DNA of 42,194 nucleotides from contig CAZJUB010000016.1 of NCBI GenBank assembly GCA_964549075.1, forward strand, positions 1-42,194, written 5' to 3'. A program made the position numbers and the translations under genes. The stretch is from an uncultured archaeon. GTDB taxonomy: Archaea; Asgardarchaeota; Heimdallarchaeia; Heimdallarchaeales; Heimdallarchaeaceae. This document shows, one piece after another, positions 26,118 to 33,553 of the stretch; position 1 is the first letter of the stretch; each line of letters opens with the position of its first letter. The notes beneath the pieces were generated by a model. That model did not search any database, had not been told where the DNA came from, and saw only the letters and a list, made by a program, of their open reading frames with translations.

Positions 26118-27410
26118 ATGCAAAGGAAGCTTACTTCTAGAACCATGATTTCTATAGCATTACTAACGTTTGCTGGAGAAATTGCTTGGGGAGTTGAAAA
26201 TCAGTACTTTAACGTTTTTATGTATAACGAAATAGCTCCTAATCCAACCTATATCTCTTGGATGGTTGCAATGAGTGCGATAACTGCAACATTTACAGCT
26301 ATTTTCTTAGGAGCTCTCTCAGATAAAATTGGTAAAAGGAGAGTATTCTTTATTGTTGGTTTACCCCTTTGGGCTATAACAACAGCTATTTTCCCTCTTT
26401 CTGGATATCTAAAACCAATAATTCTTGCAGTTTCGATAGCAATACTATTTGATTGTTTAATGACGTTCTTTGGTTCGATGTCTAATGATGCATCTTTAAA
26501 AGCATATTCAGTCGATGTTACAACTCTAGATAATAGAGGAAAGCTAAGTGCTTTAATCGAAGTTGCTATGTTAGTAGCTACTTTAGTAGTTTACGGAACT
26601 TCAGGTTTAATCATTGATAAGTTAGGTTACTTTTCTTTATTCTACATAATTGGTGGTGTAGTAGGAGTATTAGGAACATTAGGAGCATTTTTAGCAAAAG
26701 ATCCTGATATTAAACCTACAAAAACAAGTTATTGGCAAAATTTGAAATCTACTTTCAAAATCGATGAATTAAAACAAAATAAAAGTGCTTTACTAGTATT
26801 TTTAGGAATAATGTTTAGAGGAATTGCCTTTAACGTTTTCTTCCCTTATTTAATTATCTACTTACAACACTATCTAAAATTCTCTATAACTCAATCTAGT
26901 ATAATTGTATTTATAGCCATATTAGTGGCGATACTAGGAGCTATACCAGTTGGATTTATTGTGGATAAAATAGGCAGAAAAATAATAGCTTTTATAGCTA
27001 TTCTAGTTGAAGCAATTGCATTAATCCTTTTTGCGATACCAAAGAGTAATGATTTTTTTATTATTTTAACTATTATAGGCTCATTTATGATGTTAGCTAT
27101 GATGCTTTGGGACATATCAGTTAATACTTGGGTAAAAGACCTATTTCCTGAAGAAAAACGTGGGCAATTCGCAGGATTATTCATGATATTTTTTGTTCTA
27201 ATTCCAATGATTATAGGTCCATTTATTGGTAGTTCAATTGCAAAAACAACAGGTCAAACTTTTATCGATCCCGAGACTGGACAAGAGGGATTTATACCTC
27301 CACCTTTACTATTCATTATAGCAGGGATATTAATGTTGCCTTCAGCTATTCCTTTATTCTGGGCTAAAGATTTGAAAAAGGAAAAAAACAATCTAAAAGA
27401 AACGGTTTAA
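26118..27410 (+). CDS. MFS transporter, probable sugar/glycoside permease
   Basis: GALSDKIGKRR and GFIVDKIGRK motif A copies, about 12 TMs, convergent with a GH2 gene. Confidence 0.88.
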   Translation: MQRKLTSRTMISIALLTFAGEIAWGVENQYFNVFMYNEIAPNPTYISWMVAMSAITATFTAIFLGALSDKIGKRRVFFIVGLPLWAITTAIFPLSGYLKPIILAVSIAILFDCLMTFFGSMSNDASLKAYSVDVTTLDNRGKLSALIEVAMLVATLVVYGTSGLIIDKLGYFSLFYIIGGVVGVLGTLGAFLAKDPDIKPTKTSYWQNLKSTFKIDELKQNKSALLVFLGIMFRGIAFNVFFPYLIIYLQHYLKFSITQSSIIVFIAILVAILGAIPVGFIVDKIGRKIIAFIAILVEAIALILFAIPKSNDFFIILTIIGSFMMLAMMLWDISVNTWVKDLFPEEKRGQFAGLFMIFFVLIPMIIGPFIGSSIAKTTGQTFIDPETGQEGFIPPPLLFIIAGILMLPSAIPLFWAKDLKKEKNNLKETV

Positions 27411-29200
27411 TCTTTTTTCTCATCATCTTTAATTAGCTTTTTTGCAAAATCTTGTGCTTTGATAAAATCAATTTTGGGAACTTTCCTATCATAAGTAATT
27501 AAACCATTAATTTCTCTTTCAACATCAACAAGCTGTGTATAAATAGCAGCACTCAATCCCTTATATTTTAAAACTGATGTTTCAGTTAAAATCTCTGAAT
27601 AACTAGATTTTAACTCTTCATTTGTGTTAAATTCTTTATAAGCCCAACTTTTTTCAGAATTCCAGATATGTCCATTTATTTTTAGTCCTAAACCTCCGAA
27701 CTCCCCTAAAACAGCTACTCTGTTAGTCTCTATTGGAGGTATAGCTGGACCTACATATTTGTGAATATCTCTGATATCACCTGTTTTTTTATCAACCCAT
27801 CCACTAATACTGTCAATTAATCTAGAATTATCAAGAGTACGAATAAAATCTGTAACTTGTTTGGTTTCAAACTGCCCCCAAGCTTCGTTAAATGGTACCC
27901 AAACAATAACTGAAGGATGGTTGTAAAGAAAATCAATCATCTCTTTGAGTTCAGAATAATATTGTTTTCTAACAGATTTCTTATATCTACCATACTTAGA
28001 ACTAAGTTTTTCACCTAATAAAAAACCGATAGCACCTGCCCAAAAACTACCACCATTTGGCATATCTTGCCAAACGAGTATGCCTAATTTATCACAATGA
28101 TAATACCATCTCGAAGGTTCAACTTTAACATGTTTTCGAATCATGTTAAAGCCAAATTTCAGAGCTAGTTCAATATCATATTTCAGAGCTTCATCTGTTG
28201 GAGCAGTATATAATCCATCAGGCCAATATCCTTGATCTAAAACTCCATATTGGAATAAAATAGTATTGTTCAGAGCAAGTCTTGGAAAACCGGATTTGTC
28301 ATTCATAATACTTATTTTTCTCATTCCAAAGTAACTCTCGACTTTATCAATCGTCTCATTTTTTCGCTTAAGCTCTATAAACAAATCGTAAAGAAAAGGA
28401 TTTTCAAGGCTCCACAATCTTTGATTTGGAATATCTATAACAAAAGGACCTTCGTCCTCGAAAATTGCCTTTGTAACTAATTTTCCTTTAGATTTGATGT
28501 TAACGATTATTTCATCTGTGCCCTTAAAATTGTTAAAAATCGGTTTGATATTCAACTTGGAATTATCTATATCTGGAACTAGAAAAATTCTGTCTATTCG
28601 AGATCTTGGAACAGGTTCCAACCACACTGTACCCCAAATACCTGAAACAGCTGTATAGAAAATTAATTTCGGATTTAGTCTCTGTTTACCTCTCTCTTGT
28701 CTCCCTTTGTTAGTAGGATCCCATACTGAGACAATAATCTCATTTTCTCCTCGGAATTTTATGTATCTTGAAACCTCAAAAGAAAAAGGAACATATCCTC
28801 CTCTATGTTCTCCAACATATTCTCCATTTACCCAAATCTTTGTATCCCAATCAACAGCTCCAAAATGTAGAATAATATCTTGTTCCTTCCATGCATCTGG
28901 TATATCAAAAATTCGACGATACCAAATTATCTGATTAGGTTTTAGTTTTCGTTTAACACCAGATAACGCCGATTCGACAGCAAAAGGAACAAGGATCTTT
29001 CCTTCATAATTTTCTGGTTTAGAACTAGCTTTTGATAGGATGCTGTAATCCCATAAACCATTAAGATTCAACCAGGTTCCTCTCTTAAATTGTGGTCGAG
29101 GATAGTCTGGTATAGGTGATTCTGGATTCACATCATCACACCATTGAGTAGCAAGTACTCCTTGAACTATCTCCCAGGTGTATTTCAACTCGTTTGACAT
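27407..29200 (-). CDS. Glycoside hydrolase family 2
   Basis: YPRPQ, LNLNGLW, HFGAVD, LDQGYWPDG, RKHVKVE, FNEAWG and GEFGG motifs. Confidence 0.92.
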   Translation of the reverse strand: MSNELKYTWEIVQGVLATQWCDDVNPESPIPDYPRPQFKRGTWLNLNGLWDYSILSKASSKPENYEGKILVPFAVESALSGVKRKLKPNQIIWYRRIFDIPDAWKEQDIILHFGAVDWDTKIWVNGEYVGEHRGGYVPFSFEVSRYIKFRGENEIIVSVWDPTNKGRQERGKQRLNPKLIFYTAVSGIWGTVWLEPVPRSRIDRIFLVPDIDNSKLNIKPIFNNFKGTDEIIVNIKSKGKLVTKAIFEDEGPFVIDIPNQRLWSLENPFLYDLFIELKRKNETIDKVESYFGMRKISIMNDKSGFPRLALNNTILFQYGVLDQGYWPDGLYTAPTDEALKYDIELALKFGFNMIRKHVKVEPSRWYYHCDKLGILVWQDMPNGGSFWAGAIGFLLGEKLSSKYGRYKKSVRKQYYSELKEMIDFLYNHPSVIVWVPFNEAWGQFETKQVTDFIRTLDNSRLIDSISGWVDKKTGDIRDIHKYVGPAIPPIETNRVAVLGEFGGLGLKINGHIWNSEKSWAYKEFNTNEELKSSYSEILTETSVLKYKGLSAAIYTQLVDVEREINGLITYDRKVPKIDFIKAQDFAKKLIKDDEKKD

Positions 29201-29279: not shown

Positions 29280-30056
29280 TTATTCTTCTAATTCATATGA
29301 AAAATCTAAATTACCTGTAAAAATGTTAACAAATTGATTACTTCGTTTTTCTTCAGGTACTTTTTCACTGTCCATCTCTTCTTTAATCTCTTCTTTTAAT
29401 TCTTCAAGTTGTTTAATAAAACTAAATATTAGTTCATTTATTTTGAACATATGTTTCCATTTACTAATCTTCAGCTGATTGACATAAATACTAATATCCA
29501 TAGGTGACAAATTAGTCTTTTTAATAAGCGCTTCTTTATCTTCTTCCTCATCGTAGATTTTCTTATATTCATTTATCTTATTTATAGCTTCATTTATCAT
29601 AACATTTTGAAGATTGGAAACAAAGTAGAAGTATTTTGCTGTTACTGATATTTCCTCAAGTTTTCCTTCTGAAATTATTCTTTCTACAACATAAGATGCT
29701 AAGTCCTTTTCAGAGAATTTATCTAGATCACCTAGATCGCTTGAGATTTTTTCAACTTGTTCATCTAAAGTATGCATATATTCGTCATAAATTTGTTTTA
29801 CAGCAGGTGACAATTTGTAATACTTCCCCCAACTATCTTCAGATTTTTCACTATCAAACACTATAATACCTTTATCTTTTAGTTTTCTAATATATCTCAG
29901 AGTAGTGCTTTCAGGTTTATTGAGCATTACAGCTAGTTTCTTTAGATTAAGTGATTCATACCAATTTAGAGCTGTTACAATCCCATATTCTATTTCATCT
30001 GAAACCAAAGTAAAATATTGCTGTTTGATTCTCTCGTATTCTTTGGTTTTACTCAT
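29280..30056 (-). CDS. Winged helix-turn-helix transcriptional regulator with helical C-terminal domain
   Basis: LNLKKLAVMLNKPESTTLRYIRKLKDKGII followed by wing KYYKLS. Divergent from the small-ORF/MFS units. Confidence 0.8.
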   Translation of the reverse strand: MSKTKEYERIKQQYFTLVSDEIEYGIVTALNWYESLNLKKLAVMLNKPESTTLRYIRKLKDKGIIVFDSEKSEDSWGKYYKLSPAVKQIYDEYMHTLDEQVEKISSDLGDLDKFSEKDLASYVVERIISEGKLEEISVTAKYFYFVSNLQNVMINEAINKINEYKKIYDEEEDKEALIKKTNLSPMDISIYVNQLKISKWKHMFKINELIFSFIKQLEELKEEIKEEMDSEKVPEEKRSNQFVNIFTGNLDFSYELEE

Positions 30057-30087
30057 GTTTATTCACAAAGAACAACATATCAAACCA

Positions 30088-30209
30088 CTTAAAAAGTTTT
30101 TCCATTATGAAAGAAATTTCAAATTGACAGAAAAGTTTATAAGTCAAAGAATACACAAATATTTCAGAAAGGAATTAATTTCATATTGAAAGAAATTCAA
30201 AAATGGAGG
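30088..30209. promoter_or_regulatory. Divergent promoter with TATA box and repeated palindromic operator-like sites
   Basis: Purine-rich BRE-like stretch + TTTATAA at 30136-30142, TGAAAGAAATTTCA at 30108-30121, TTGAAAGAAATTCAA at 30186-30200, GGAGG at 30205-30209. Confidence 0.55.
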
Positions 30210-30218
30210 AAACAAAAA

Positions 30219-30329
30219 ATGAAAACAAACACAAACACAAACACAAGAAAAATCCAAACTGATAAAGTTGAATACTGGTCTGTTGGAGGACAATTCTGCG
30301 TATCAATTGCAAATAAAGTAAGAAAGTAA
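30219..30329 (+). CDS. Unannotated small protein / leader peptide 1 (36 aa, YWSVGG motif)
   Basis: MKTNTNTNTRKIQTDKVEYWSVGGQFCVSIANKVRK*. GGAGG 9 nt upstream, ends 21 nt before the MFS start, paralog at 31966. Confidence 0.8.
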   Translation: MKTNTNTNTRKIQTDKVEYWSVGGQFCVSIANKVRK

Positions 30330-30350
30330 AGCTGAAAGGAAGCAATAACA

Positions 30351-31760
30351 ATGGTAACAGAAGTAGAAACAACTGATAAAGTAGAAAAAAAACCGAATGC
30401 ATTAAGTCTCCTCAAGAATAGAGACTTCTCTGCTATTTTTATTGGAGGTTTTATCTCGAATCTTGGAATTTGGTTTACTCAAATAGCAGTCTTATTTTAT
30501 GCATTAACACTAGTATCACATTTACCTCAAGAAGAAGCAACACAAGAAGTAGCACTATTAACAACTTTTGCATTATTACCAATGTTAATACTAGGTCCTC
30601 TTGGAGGAGTAATTGCAGATAAATATGATAGGAAGAAGATTATGATTATTTCTGACTTGCTAGGTGTATGTGTGACAACAAGTCTTGTATTTGCCAATGA
30701 AATGTGGCATCTATATTTGCTTCTAACCTTAAGTTCATCGATTAGACAATTCTTCTATCCAGCTAGAACAGCAGCATTACCTATGATGGTCAAGAAAGAT
30801 CGACTACTTTCTGCTAATGGATTTATACAAACAACAAATCAATTATCAAGGATGCTAGGACCTGTAACAGCGGGATTCGTTATAGCAGCAGCAGGGTATC
30901 AAGCTGCATTCATTATCGATGCAGTTTCATATGCCATATCAGCAATTATGATATTGACTATCAGACATAATCTTAAAGCACCTCAACAAGAAGAAAAAGT
31001 GAGTGTTAAGAGTGTATTTGTAGGAATGAGAGATGGTGCAAAAATTACATTTACAGACAAAATAATAAAATTTGTAGTAATCAGCTTTGCAATTACAATT
31101 TTCGCATTGGGTGCCATAGATCCAGTAGCTGTCCCATATCTAAATTTTGTTTTTGGATTAGGTGAAAAAGATTTAGGAATGATGATGACTTTCTCAGCTT
31201 TAAGTGGAGTTATAGCAGCAATTGGATTGTCAATTAAAGGAAAACTAAATAAAAAACTAGCTTTCATGTCTTACGCTATACTTGCATTAGGTATTAGTGT
31301 AGCTTTATTGGCACTTGCACCTTTCATGGCAGGACCAGTAGTATGGTTATACATGGGTATGGCTCTAATAGGGTTCACAAATGTAGGATTTAATGTCCCC
31401 TTCTCAACCCTTCTTCAAAGAATTGTAAAGAATGAAGATCTTGGTAAAGTTAGTGGTATAATAGACACTTTTATGACAGGAGCCTCGCTCTTAGCTTCAG
31501 TTCTAGCAGCAACTCTTGCAAAGTATATTAGCATTAGTCTTTTACTTGGTATAGTCGCTTCTACTATACTCGCATCAGGAATAATCTTCGTAATTGTGAC
31601 AAGAATAAGGAAAATGGATCAAACTGCTTTAAGAAGAGAAGAAGAAATGATGGCTTTAGAAGACATAAAGGAGAGGAAAATTGAGAAAAATAAAGCAGTT
31701 GTTTCTTTTGAAACTGAATCAAAACAAGAATATCCAAATTTGAATCCTTCATTAGAATAA
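30351..31760 (+). CDS. MFS transporter, MefA/DHA3-like efflux family (paralog 1)
   Basis: GVIADKYDRKKIM, FFYPARTA, LLSANG, GP..AG, DAVSY and LGKVSG motifs. Confidence 0.9.
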   Translation: MVTEVETTDKVEKKPNALSLLKNRDFSAIFIGGFISNLGIWFTQIAVLFYALTLVSHLPQEEATQEVALLTTFALLPMLILGPLGGVIADKYDRKKIMIISDLLGVCVTTSLVFANEMWHLYLLLTLSSSIRQFFYPARTAALPMMVKKDRLLSANGFIQTTNQLSRMLGPVTAGFVIAAAGYQAAFIIDAVSYAISAIMILTIRHNLKAPQQEEKVSVKSVFVGMRDGAKITFTDKIIKFVVISFAITIFALGAIDPVAVPYLNFVFGLGEKDLGMMMTFSALSGVIAAIGLSIKGKLNKKLAFMSYAILALGISVALLALAPFMAGPVVWLYMGMALIGFTNVGFNVPFSTLLQRIVKNEDLGKVSGIIDTFMTGASLLASVLAATLAKYISISLLLGIVASTILASGIIFVIVTRIRKMDQTALRREEEMMALEDIKERKIEKNKAVVSFETESKQEYPNLNPSLE

Positions 31761-31780
31761 CCTCTCTCTTTCTTTTTTTC
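31761..31780 (+). terminator. Pyrimidine/oligo-T tract, archaeal-type terminator
   Basis: CCTCTCTCTTTCTTTTTTTC immediately after the MFS stop codon. Confidence 0.5.
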
Positions 31781-31965
31781 AGCTTTAACTTTTCAGCTTA
31801 AGCTATTCACTTTTCACTTGAAGTATTCTACTTAAAAATTGACTAATTCAAAGATTCCATTTCTCGCTTAAACTTGAGTTTCAGCCTCTTAAACTTGTAA
31901 TTTTTAAAATTCCTTAATAAAGGTGTGTTTTACTGTAGTTCATCAAACAAGGAGAACTGAAAAAA

Positions 31966-32088
31966 ATGAAAACAATCTCAAAATCAAAGAAAAACCTAAA
32001 CGAAAAAATTGACTATTGGTCAGTTGGTGGTCACTTCTTCTCATCACTCTCAAATAAGGTGACCAGTAATAGTTCAATTAGAAAATAA
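31966..32088 (+). CDS. Unannotated small protein / leader peptide 2 (40 aa, YWSVGG motif)
   Basis: MKTISKSKKNLNEKIDYWSVGGHFFSSLSNKVTSNSSIRK*. AAGGAG at 31949-31954, ends 10 nt before the MFS start. Confidence 0.8.
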   Translation: MKTISKSKKNLNEKIDYWSVGGHFFSSLSNKVTSNSSIRK

Positions 32089-32098
32089 AGGTGTAATA

Positions 32099-33553
32099 AT
32101 GAAATACGAAGAGGCGGAAACTGAAATTCAAGATGATTTCCAAGCAAAACAGAAGAAATCCAATCCTCTTACTCTGCTGAGGAATTGGAACTTTTCTGCA
32201 TTATTTATTGGTGGATTTATTAATAATGTTGGATCTTATTTTACTACTGTTGCAATAATTTTCTTAGGTTTAGTATTTACTAGTGGATTACCTGAAAATG
32301 AAGCAACAAGAGAAATTGCTCTTATGACAACATTCACTTTGGCACCTATGTTAGTTTTAGGACCAATTGCAGGAGTACTTGCTGATAAATTTGATCGTAA
32401 GAAAGTAATGGTAATCGCTGATTTTCTAGGAGCTGGTGCTGCTTTTAGTTTGATATTCGCGACACAAATGTGGCATTTATATTTGTTCGCTCTCTTCAAT
32501 TCATCTGTTAGACAATTCTTTTATCCTGCTAAAACAGCCAGCATTCCTAGATTGGTAAAACAAGACCAACTACTCACCGCTAACGGTTTCATTCAGACTA
32601 CCAGTCAGTTATCTAGATTAATTGGACCTTTATTAGCAGGTTTTCTAATTGCCGCTTTTGGATTCGACTTAGCTTTCATTATTGATGGTTGTTCTTATGT
32701 GATTTCAGCTGTCTTACTTATTACTATCAGAACAAATCTTAAACCAACAAAAACAGAAGAGAAACTTACACTTCGAAGTGTTGGGACTGGATTAAAAGAA
32801 GGCTTTCAGTTAGCATTTACAGACAAGATAATAACCTTCGTAATCATACTATTCTCCTTTACAATACTCATGATAGGAATGGTAGATCCTCTAATTGTGC
32901 CTTATATGAATTTCCAATTTGGCGTAGGAGAAGAGGAATTTGGTATGATGATGAGTTTTGCAGCTATTAGTGGATTAATACTTGCAGTAGCTCTATCTAT
33001 AAAGGGACACATTAAGAAAAAGTTAACTTTTATGACTGTAACAATCTTAATAGCTAGTTTCTGCCTTGCTTTTCTTGGATTAGCTCCCTTTTTACCAGGA
33101 GGTGTAGCATGGATTTGGACAGGGATGATCTTAGTTGGTTGTATTAATGTAGGATTTAACCTGCCCTTTGCTACCCTCATTCAAAGAATTATTCCTGATA
33201 AAGACTTAGGAAAAATTTCTGGAGTTGTGGATACTGTTATTACAGGTGCATCAGTGACCGCATCAGGTATTGCAGCTGCTTTAGCTGGGGTAATTTCAAC
33301 CAGTTGGATATTTATTATCTTAACCATAGCTATTGCACTTGGTGGTGTAGTAGGATTAGTAATTATAAAATACATGAATCTTGAAAAGATTGCTCAACTC
33401 CGCGAAGAGAAAATGAAAGCAATCAAAGAAAGAGAAGAAGTAGATAAGGAAACTAGAGAGGAAATTATTGATTTTGAGAAACAGGTACAGCTCACCTTAG
33501 AAGAACTAAAATCTGAGGAACCTTTAAAGGCACCTCACCCCTCTCTAGATTAA
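32099..33553 (+). CDS. MFS transporter, MefA/DHA3-like efflux family (paralog 2)
   Basis: Collinear paralog of 30351-31760 (ADKFDRKKVM, RQFFYPA, ANGFIQTT, DLGKISG). Confidence 0.9.
   Translation: MKYEEAETEIQDDFQAKQKKSNPLTLLRNWNFSALFIGGFINNVGSYFTTVAIIFLGLVFTSGLPENEATREIALMTTFTLAPMLVLGPIAGVLADKFDRKKVMVIADFLGAGAAFSLIFATQMWHLYLFALFNSSVRQFFYPAKTASIPRLVKQDQLLTANGFIQTTSQLSRLIGPLLAGFLIAAFGFDLAFIIDGCSYVISAVLLITIRTNLKPTKTEEKLTLRSVGTGLKEGFQLAFTDKIITFVIILFSFTILMIGMVDPLIVPYMNFQFGVGEEEFGMMMSFAAISGLILAVALSIKGHIKKKLTFMTVTILIASFCLAFLGLAPFLPGGVAWIWTGMILVGCINVGFNLPFATLIQRIIPDKDLGKISGVVDTVITGASVTASGIAAALAGVISTSWIFIILTIAIALGGVVGLVIIKYMNLEKIAQLREEKMKAIKEREEVDKETREEIIDFEKQVQLTLEELKSEEPLKAPHPSLD

Follow-up and report, generated by a model that had tools for sequence, protein, structure and literature searches.

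The window analyzed here, a stretch of 42,194 nucleotides (nt) from an uncultured archaeon of the Heimdallarchaeaceae (GenBank assembly GCA_964549075.1, contig CAZJUB010000016.1), carries two small open reading frames (ORFs), pepA and pepB, each directly upstream of a gene for a transporter of the major facilitator superfamily (MFS). The conserved core of pepB coincides with a DNA element, TGGTCA-N5-TGGTCAC-N24-GTGACCA (hereafter the box), which, as judged by comparison, is a cis-regulatory element found family-wide in Heimdallarchaeaceae-like archaea and heading a small regulon. The explanation that best accounts for the whole, to which we give a probability of about one half, is that a translated small cistron has been overprinted on this DNA box and is coupled to the pump gene that follows it. 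The comparisons also indicate that the peptide is a real conserved small gene, and the evidence for this lies mostly outside pepB.

The preliminary description of the window had reported two short ORFs, each with its own Shine-Dalgarno (SD) sequence and each directly 5' of an MFS gene, and both are present as described. On the + strand, pepA (30219-30329; 36 amino acids, aa) has a GGAGG SD at 30205-30209 and is directly followed by MFS-A (30351-31760, +; 469 aa), and pepB (31966-32088, +; 40 aa) has an AAGGAG SD at 31949-31954 and is directly followed by MFS-B (32099-33553, +; 484 aa). The likeness of the two peptides is confirmed by an alignment with 14 identities over 30 positions (BLASTP E 2e-10), and a six-frame scan of the whole genome (G000; 3.2 Mb, 32% G+C, 217 contigs, the contig of the window being C16) gives seven matches to YW..GG, with small ORFs of the pep kind only at pepA and pepB. 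As had been supposed, the motif belongs to no described family: neither peptide has a Pfam or NCBIfam match, and Rfam gives 0 matches at E <= 1 in eight loci. The peptides were also called unannotated, which holds only in part: public protein collections already contain pepA and orthologues of pepB, and NCBI records of Candidatus Heimdallarchaeaceae metagenome-assembled genomes list one pepB orthologue and one further member of the family as 'hypothetical protein'. The use of different codons for identical residues is borne out in part: the two genes differ at 15 bases over 19 aligned codons, nine of them at third positions (P 0.014 under random placement), and 12 of the 19 residues are kept (P 0.052 under random placement of the base changes).

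It had been proposed that selection acts on the peptide rather than on the DNA, and this does not hold for pepB, the core of which is the DNA box and is non-coding at dozens of loci; it holds for the box-less copies of the pepA type. In the window, the distal half-site TGGTCA (32017-32022, no strand) forms the codons W-S of pepB, and the box core TGGTCAC-N24-GTGACCA (32028-32065, no strand), which scores 85.2 bits with the box model, forms the codons G-H ... V-T. The weaker matches of the peptide profile are not ORFs: they read 'W-S-x-x-G-H-F-F-S...V-T' with in-frame stops and no start codon, and they lie 5' of unrelated genes. A pattern search in which spacers of 20-32 nt were allowed finds the box at 38 places in 20 of the 31 family genomes, with a spacer of exactly 24 nt at every place, and the reversed pattern used as a control gives 0 matches in 29 of the 31 genomes and one per strand in the other two. 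The box model (R1), a covariance model built from 43 copies, matches 44 of the 83 genomes of the class, comprising 30/30 in family f1, 11/12 in f7, 2/22 in f5 (weak matches) and 0/18 in f2, f3, f4 and f6 together, with one to seven matches in each genome that has any. The genome of the window has three boxes: the one in pepB, a second on contig C17 and a third, weaker one on C4. Of the 84 distinct box sites that we read, 18 are linked to MFS genes and 66 head other genes; in 63 of these 66, stops or the lack of a start leave the peptide frame without a usable ORF. In the box-bearing ORFs, Gly-His is always written GGT CAC and Val-Thr always GTG ACC, against the preference of the genome for GGA and CAT, and, over 14 ORF copies, the three codon positions inside the box have similar entropies (9.36/8.92/8.31). 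The absence of codon periodicity and the codons fixed against the genome preference indicate that the core of pepB is held by the DNA.

The evidence that the overlying ORF is a gene comes from its distribution and from the copies that have left the box. An ATG-started frame is open through the right arm at 15 of the 18 MFS-linked boxes and at 3 of the 66 others (Fisher 4e-11, with sites that are not independent and 15 ORFs that represent only about four lineages), and in 14 of these 15 ORFs the ATG lies 21-22 codons before the Gly. Two groups of pepB orthologues are separated by an in-frame indel of 3 nt. In pepA, no match to the box model is found even at E 10 with filters off, and the peptide motif YW[SL]-x-x-G[HQ] is kept. 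In clade D of the MFS tree, the second, MFS-proximal peptide has lost the half-sites by synonymous changes (TCT, GGA CAT, GGG CAA). The closest pair of box-less peptides (G021 and L174) shows 0.028 nonsynonymous (dN) and 0.468 synonymous (dS) substitutions per site. All ten pairs among the five box-less loci have a residue identity above that given by random placement of the same base changes (P <= 0.022; seven pairs at 0 of 5000 and two more at 0.0002), and the same test on the tandem pair pep43 and pep45 gives P 5e-5. These substitution patterns show the mark of purifying selection on the box-less peptides, over their full length and including the RKIE.E and VSKV ends.

The relatives were collected with a profile of the two peptides. 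Orthologues of pepB are found in ten other genomes of the genus, where they are full-length, ATG-started, open and directly 5' of the MFS-B orthologue (E 1e-13 to 1e-22). More distant versions lie 5' of other MFS paralogues, in G008 and G017 (clade C), in G021 and G004 (clade D, two in tandem) and in G045 and G046, which belong to another genus (clade F). MFS-A falls in clade A and MFS-B in clade B, and each of the clades A, B, C, D and F has its own peptide type. Across 47 genomes of the order, the profile has no match at E <= 0.01 outside family f1. A search of 1.84 billion representative proteins with the profile gives 11 matches at E <= 0.001; nine are small members of the family (36-59 aa), of which six are sequences absent from the loci read, and four of these six have G-Q instead of G-H. 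Two longer proteins, each with four profile matches, are not counted as kin: P0004 (463 aa, rich in Ala, Arg and Gly, with four copies of a long repeat) is taken as a spurious frame, and P0011 (561 aa, with EVWSFDGHS repeats) is taken as a set of beta-propeller blades that resemble the pep hairpin at the motif level only. A word-indexed protein search with pepB returned no candidate, and a look-up of pepB in the ESM Atlas gave only unnamed clusters, with a recognition value of 1887 that is below the useful range.

The history of pepA can be read from its surroundings. On the MFS tree, MFS-A lies within a group of orthologues that have no peptide, which leaves two histories for pepA: retention here with at least two losses elsewhere, or a single gain. 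In G006, G010, G021 and G004, a gene for a winged-helix (wHTH) protein is divergent from the MFS-A orthologue, the intergenic region of about 150 nt has no pepA, and a conserved leader runs directly to the start codon of MFS-A; the same leader ends at the start of pepA in the window and, in G045, at a box-bearing peptide followed by the MFS gene. Two further loci record rearrangements. In G001 (contig C12, locus L072), which has no MFS-A here, a 104-residue wHTH fragment (residues 153-256, 48% identity) lies about 230-530 nt 5' of pepB and is by its position and sequence a relic of a deleted wHTH/MFS-A unit. On the metagenome contig L176 (about 1840-2040), a box-less peptide precedes an MFS gene and unrelated genes replace the sequence 5' of the conserved ATTAGAAAAAACTAAGGTG leader; to judge from this junction, the box was lost by rearrangement and the peptide and its coupling remain.

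We turn to how the box itself may work. The 3' part of its spacer is TATA-like (TTAAAAT, ATATATAG, TTATAAAG) and resembles the TTAAAAA boxes 5' of the tRNA genes of the genome. An A/T run of at least seven is present in the 3' spacer of 44 of 64 forward non-ORF boxes (8 reverse-strand duplicates having been removed from 72 rows) and of 4 of 14 ORF boxes. This run is weakened in the pep loci, probably because a TAA would break the frame. About 13-16 nt past the right arm lies a conserved (T/A)TAG at a constant distance, and the distance from the TAG to the start codon ranges from about 11 to 28 nt by gene class; the copy in pepB is TTAG (32078-32081, +), a candidate transcription start of the box promoter. 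In the copy at L045, about 28 nt separate the centre of the TATA-like box from the A of the TAG, as counted by us; archaeal promoters have a TATA-like box about 26-28 nt upstream of the transcription start. Together, the TATA-like spacer and the fixed distance between box and TAG fit the layout expected of an archaeal core promoter with regulator half-sites on both sides. Most likely, the box is a core promoter with its TATA-like box in the 3' part of the 24-nt spacer and the half-sites of a putative sequence-specific regulator on its flanks.

The non-MFS genes headed by the box encode a helical protein of about 100-135 aa, basic proteins of 33-43 aa with their own SD, a GNAT-fusion protein, a TldD/PmbA peptidase (box-regulated in one genome) and an alpha/beta hydrolase. 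The helical protein has the same phyletic range as the box, being present in 30/30 genomes of f1, 12/12 of f7 and 0/40 elsewhere, and its gene usually has a box in front of it (16 of the sites that we read, from 15 genomes). The copy in the genome of the window (113 aa, all-helical, acidic in its tail; PEEIREIL..V.SEVPALIKNIF...YGKGI...G[LI]PE) is encoded at C4:23393-23731 (+) with the box at C4:23300-23375 (L170). It has no Pfam match, and a profile search of the PDB matched only designed helical repeats. Its distribution makes it a candidate for the box regulator or for a core target. The divergent wHTH protein was considered as the regulator and is ruled out by its phyletic pattern, because the family is spread patchily over box-bearing and box-less families (f1 20/30, f3 8/12, f5 7/22, f7 7/12).

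Several of the small basic proteins of the regulon are of note in their own right. On C17 of the window's genome, a non-coding box (C17:33161-33236) is directly followed by the gene of a free-standing 40-aa basic protein of the MAEK...RKVEKK...YFNGQ..IF type (C17:33038-33160, -, equal to L171:1478-1600) with its own SD, and then by a flavodoxin gene in convergent orientation. Many genomes of the genus have homologues of 39-43 aa, in which the Gly codon is GGT, GGA or GGG, a variation typical of real proteins; a collection of 5.8 billion protein clusters contains only one near-identical sequence (98%). Homology between pep and this protein is not supported (profile-profile probability 3%), and the idea that the G-[QH] shared by the two is another TGGTCA half-site is rejected because of the same variation of the Gly codon. 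In family f7, the box precedes 33-aa basic proteins that end in ..IIIFR or ..RIEFR (L134, L135, L137, L143 and L150) and form an unannotated small-protein family.

The signals around the two cistrons of the window place the putative promoters upstream of the peptides. The wHTH gene (29280-30056, -; 258 aa; Pfam HTH_24 E 5.4e-7) is divergent from pepA and MFS-A. The probable promoter of the pepA-MFS-A unit, GAAAAGTTTATAAG (30130-30143, +), combines a putative transcription factor B recognition element (BRE) with a TATA-like box; it is kept in the wHTH/MFS-A intergenic regions of G006, G010, G021, G004 and G045 and resembles, by eye, the RAAA-N-TTAAAAA pattern upstream of the tRNA genes of the window's genome. 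The aligned intergenic regions also show a palindrome in the pepA leader, TTTCATATTGAAA (30179-30191, no strand; TTCCAATTTGGAA in relatives), which by itself is a possible operator of the wHTH protein. Taken over 30085-30200, the conserved palindromes TTCCATTATGAAA and TTTCATATTGAAA stand around the canonical GAAA-N-TTTATAA promoter and are probably operator sites of this divergent protein. For pepB, a putative promoter with the TATA-like box TTTTTAAAA (31901-31909, +) belongs to a block, GATTTTTAAAAyTCCTTAATAAA, that is near-invariant in 11 of 11 aligned pepB loci (one or two substitutions in G001 and G006) and is followed in conservation by the SD. In short, pepB has its own promoter-like block and SD, and the wHTH/MFS promoter would serve pepA and the G045 peptide. 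Conserved promoter-like blocks are found 5' of the peptides and none between peptide and MFS gene, which is the arrangement that the sequence of a leader ORF would show, with its own SD and a position upstream of the regulated gene.

The stop codons of the peptides lie close to the starts of the pumps. The TAA of pepB overlaps the SD of MFS-B (TAAAGGTG, 32086-32093, +), 10 nt before the MFS-B ATG; elsewhere there is an ATGA overlap (G045 and G046), a stop inside AGGTGA (G017) or a gap of 2-7 nt (G004, L175 and L176), and the gaps overall are 2-10 nt where there is no overlap. This proximity suggests that the translation of the pump is probably coupled to that of the peptide by termination-reinitiation. 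An RNA library (run X15) gave contigs over 32043-32835 only, in three pieces about 4x deep, the ends of which are not transcript ends and the uncovered parts of which are uninformative. One of them begins at 32043, inside the box and pepB and 56 nt upstream of the MFS-B ATG, a position that agrees with read-through from the putative pepB promoter.

MFS-A and MFS-B share 51% identity (E 2e-180), and full-length profile matches place both among the DHA3 / MFS_3 major facilitators (TC 2.A.1.21). MFS-A matches Pfam MFS_1 at 4.9e-44 and MFS_3 at 1.2e-25, and MFS-B matches them at 1.5e-43 and 8e-23; the scores of MFS-A and MFS-B are 90.4 and 81.1 bits with PF05977 (cut-off 27) and 151.1 and 149.5 bits with PF07690 (cut-off 33.4). 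The best NCBIfam match of both is the DHA3 model TIGR00900 (MFS-A 5.4e-64, 216.8 bits; MFS-B 1.8e-57, 195.4 bits), with scores below its subfamily cut-off of 319.6. The label 'MefA-like' given to the pumps at first can be kept at the superfamily level only: with the Mef(A) model NF000245, which has a cut-off of 675 bits, they score 71.7 and 55.8, and with the Mef-family model NF000051, which has one of 800, they score 72.1 and 69.5, so neither qualifies as a Mef macrolide efflux pump. Since the Mef(A)/(B)/(C) scores are about one-tenth of the cut-offs, the label means only the same branch of the superfamily. A scan of genome contigs with MFS-B returned only two close relatives and two weak actinobacterial matches.

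Some features of the neighborhood are recorded here. The N-terminus of pepA contains a hexanucleotide repeat, (ACAAAC)3 (30225-30246), that encodes TNTNTN; strain variants of pepA in other metagenome runs lack 6 nt at this repeat or have 3 nt more beside the start codon, both in-frame. On the - strand at 27407-29200, a protein of about 595 aa with a GH2-like glycosidase N-terminus, as judged by eye, recurs beside the pep-MFS module in G001, G023, G008 and G017. A CopA-like heavy-metal ATPase is encoded close to the module in G001, G023, G009 and G008.

Put together, the overprinting explanation has two layers. In the first, the box would be the promoter and operator of a small regulon, bound by a putative regulator that controls transcription; the regulon would comprise the 113-aa-type helical protein, the basic proteins of about 33-43 aa, the GNAT-fusion protein, the TldD/PmbA peptidase, the alpha/beta hydrolase and the DHA3 MFS pumps. 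In the second, an ORF of 35-45 codons would have been laid over the box in the MFS loci, encoding a basic tail and then a Y-W-[SL]-x-x-G-[HQ] hairpin, with the W-S, G-H and V-T codons of the peptide supplied by the three half-sites. The upstream promoter may have taken over in these loci, so that the half-sites would remain as an operator within the transcribed leader. The peptide is kept by purifying selection where the box has decayed (pepA and the second peptides of clade D), and this suggests that it gained a function of its own. The peptide would exercise this function mainly in cis: its cistron would be a regulatory leader by which the translation of a dispensable, inducible efflux pump is gated. 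In the window, pepB would be the box-bearing leader of MFS-B. The leader of MFS-A would be pepA, which has no box and would be expressed from the promoter that also serves the divergent wHTH gene.

Several observations weigh against this explanation. In pepB, the constraint on the DNA masks any signal of the peptide, and in its 16 N-terminal codons the orthologues differ mostly by residue-changing substitutions, with about six replacements to one silent change between G000 and G020. The evidence for selection from the pepA-pepB pair is marginal (the two P values given above, 0.052 and 0.014). The peptide is dispensable, being absent from MFS-A in G006, G010, G021 and G004, and the G043 MFS gene has a box and no ORF. 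In addition, pepA is confined to one species, and the profile finds nothing like it elsewhere among the genomes of the order. Stops or frameshifts in the core had been named beforehand as evidence that would speak against the peptide, and some are found: the box-bearing ORF is broken at 3 of the 18 MFS-linked sites, by a stop in G004, a missing start in G043 and a 1-nt frameshift in the metagenome locus L175, and the boxes at these sites are perfect or have one mismatch. In the box-bearing position, the ORF is the layer that is lost, not the box. The spacer of the box lacks the purine-rich BRE of the canonical promoters of the genome, and the RNA library may contain DNA. The AlphaFold2 model of the 113-aa protein is all-helical and of low confidence (predicted local distance difference test, pLDDT, 48), too poor for a fold search. 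Finally, no predicted mRNA structure ties the translation of the peptide to the exposure of the MFS SD, and the minimum free energy (MFE) fold of the pepB leader leaves the MFS SD unpaired; as no SD-exposing structure is present, the classical logic of attenuation is not seen.

A possible, if unlikely, alternative is that the peptide acts in trans, as a small protein that is made in step with the pump and binds and modulates its cognate MFS transporter or another member of the regulon, as SgrT, MgtS and AcrZ do with transporters of bacteria. The purifying selection over the full length of the box-less peptides would be expected of such a protein, and so would the peptide type peculiar to each MFS clade, if peptide and pump co-evolve. 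The regulon also holds other free-standing small basic proteins, with the varied Gly codons described above, that are clearly selected as proteins. AlphaFold2 predicts for pepB a folded aromatic beta-hairpin, YWSV-GG-HFFS (residues 17-20/23-26, pLDDT 73-78), between disordered basic tails. However, the peptides are polar and basic apart from this hairpin and have no membrane segment, unlike most small proteins that bind transporters, and they would not qualify as a transmembrane subunit. The prediction of a complex of MFS-B and pepB, each given as an alignment, scored 0.01 and speaks neither for nor against binding. The orthologous pumps without a peptide also argue against this alternative and favor a regulatory add-on over an obligatory subunit.

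It is distinctly unlikely that the ORFs are fortuitous, with the DNA box as the only element that matters and pepA and pepB untranslated or with functionless products. This is what most boxes, being non-coding, would suggest, together with the lack of codon periodicity in the box part, the almost free evolution of the pepB N-terminus, the restriction of pepA to one species and the three broken ORFs over intact or nearly intact boxes. Against it stand the strong association of the ORF with MFS-linked boxes and its fixed ATG position, the SDs, the stop-start overlaps and the in-frame indels. The strong selection on the box-less homologues is beyond what the box can explain, and pepA keeps the motif with no detectable box.

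The overprinting explanation takes the box as DNA, and it is very unlikely that the box instead works as RNA, that is, as a hairpin of GGUCAC and GUGACC in the 5' untranslated region, riboswitch-like or protein-bound, that would govern how the downstream gene is translated and would be melted in the MFS loci by ribosomes translating pep. At the pep loci the box does lie in transcribed sequence, as judged from the promoters 5' of pep and the RNA-library contig that starts inside it; the arms of pepB extend to 9 bp in the MFE fold, and at many sites the upstream gene ends right at the box, which leaves little space for another promoter. But none of the seven arm pairs shows a double (compensatory) change, and the departures, in 12 of 301 cells, are all plain mismatches, which is weak evidence because the set had been chosen for near-perfect arms. 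RNAalifold gives no consensus fold, and the fold z-scores of four representative leaders (-0.83 for pepB, +0.56 for pepA, -1.81 and -0.17) are no better than those of shuffled sequences, with structures that all differ. With neither compensatory pairs nor membership in Rfam, the box does not behave as a structured cis-regulatory RNA. In 4 of 43 alignment rows and in the C17 copy of the window's genome, the distal half-site reads TGACCA, its exact reverse complement, which makes with the proximal site a 7-5-7 palindrome, GTGACCA-N5-TGGTCAC, and abolishes pairing with the right arm. In addition, the TATA-like box of the spacer lies at promoter distance from the conserved TAG. This evidence favors a box that acts as DNA rather than RNA. 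A precursor of an exported, modified peptide (as in ribosomally synthesized and post-translationally modified peptides) with the MFS protein as its exporter would suit a small ORF beside an exporter and the TldD/PmbA peptidase that is box-regulated in one genome, but it is extremely unlikely, as there are no modification enzymes around the module in the window and no match to an NCBIfam precursor family, the peptide is conserved in its middle and variable at its ends, which differs from a leader-core layout, and MFS orthologues occur without the peptide.

Within the overprinting explanation, a more specific version, in which the small gene was born by overprinting the box, took its invariant residues (W-S, G-H, V-T) from the regulator half-sites, later became box-independent (in pepA and the second peptides of clade D) and is now an archaeal nascent-peptide sensor that gates the translation of an efflux pump, appears unlikely to us. 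If it were true, this would be the first case described in Archaea of a transporter controlled by a leader peptide, and it would come from the lineage closest to eukaryotes. To our knowledge, gene regulation in Asgard archaea is almost unknown and few members have been cultured, and among the published abstracts consulted we found nothing on the box sequence in archaea, on leader peptides of archaeal efflux genes or on Asgard small ORFs. What appears to be new is the combination of a family-wide Heimdallarchaeia box, a regulon rich in small proteins and a peptide family that seems to have been born on the box and to have outlived it. The box and its small regulon are defined by sequence and common to two families of Heimdallarchaeia, with one protein of identical phyletic pattern as a candidate partner. 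The peptides appear as a protein family of 35-45 aa under purifying selection, always 5' of DHA3 efflux-type pumps and with predicted coupling to them. The loci also offer a clean natural case of dual coding, in which the same bases are regulator half-sites and invariant codons and in which the intermediates, box without ORF and ORF without box, can be seen. They are a caution for any reading from sequence alone as well, since conserved 'amino acids' may be the shadow of a DNA element.

The closest parallels are the leader peptides of bacterial resistance and efflux genes, such as ErmCL and ErmBL, MsrDL of the mef(A)/msr(D) operon and the leaders of tet(L), cmlA and bmrCD. By analogy, the pep ORFs resemble the Erm/Msr/Mef-type leaders in being short, with their own ribosome-binding site and a conserved peptide, and in lying directly 5' of an efflux-type gene to which they would be translationally linked. 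The Erm/Msr-type leaders have about 6-20 codons and are bacterial, whereas pep has 35-45 codons and is archaeal. Unlike the Erm-type leaders, pep has no alternative mRNA structure that sequesters the SD, it overlaps a DNA box that also exists without the ORF, and its pumps are not Mef(A). TnaC and SecM are like pep in that a conserved Trp and an invariant short motif stand in a variable small ORF by which a downstream gene is, or in pep would be, controlled, but in arrest peptides the distance from Trp to stop is fixed, and between pep types it is 16-26 residues. The lack of an SD-sequestering structure and the variable Trp-stop distance argue against a classical mechanism of the Erm or TnaC type. 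Like AcrZ, MgtS, KdpF and SgrT, pep has at most 50 aa, is encoded with or near a transporter and would co-evolve with it; unlike AcrZ, KdpF and MgtS, it has no transmembrane segment and is absent at orthologous pumps in several genomes. The box can be compared with the TrmB-family sites of Thermococcales (TATCAC-N5-GTGATA), which are also hexamer or heptamer inverted repeats by a TATA box, repeated across a regulon; in the box, the two sites of the main pair stand 24 nt apart on either side of the TATA-like sequence, and in one gene class the box lies inside a coding frame. The junction of pep and MFS, with its ATGA overlaps and stop-start gaps of 2-10 nt, is like that of archaeal operons with termination-reinitiation, except that the upstream cistron here is an ORF of 35-45 codons.

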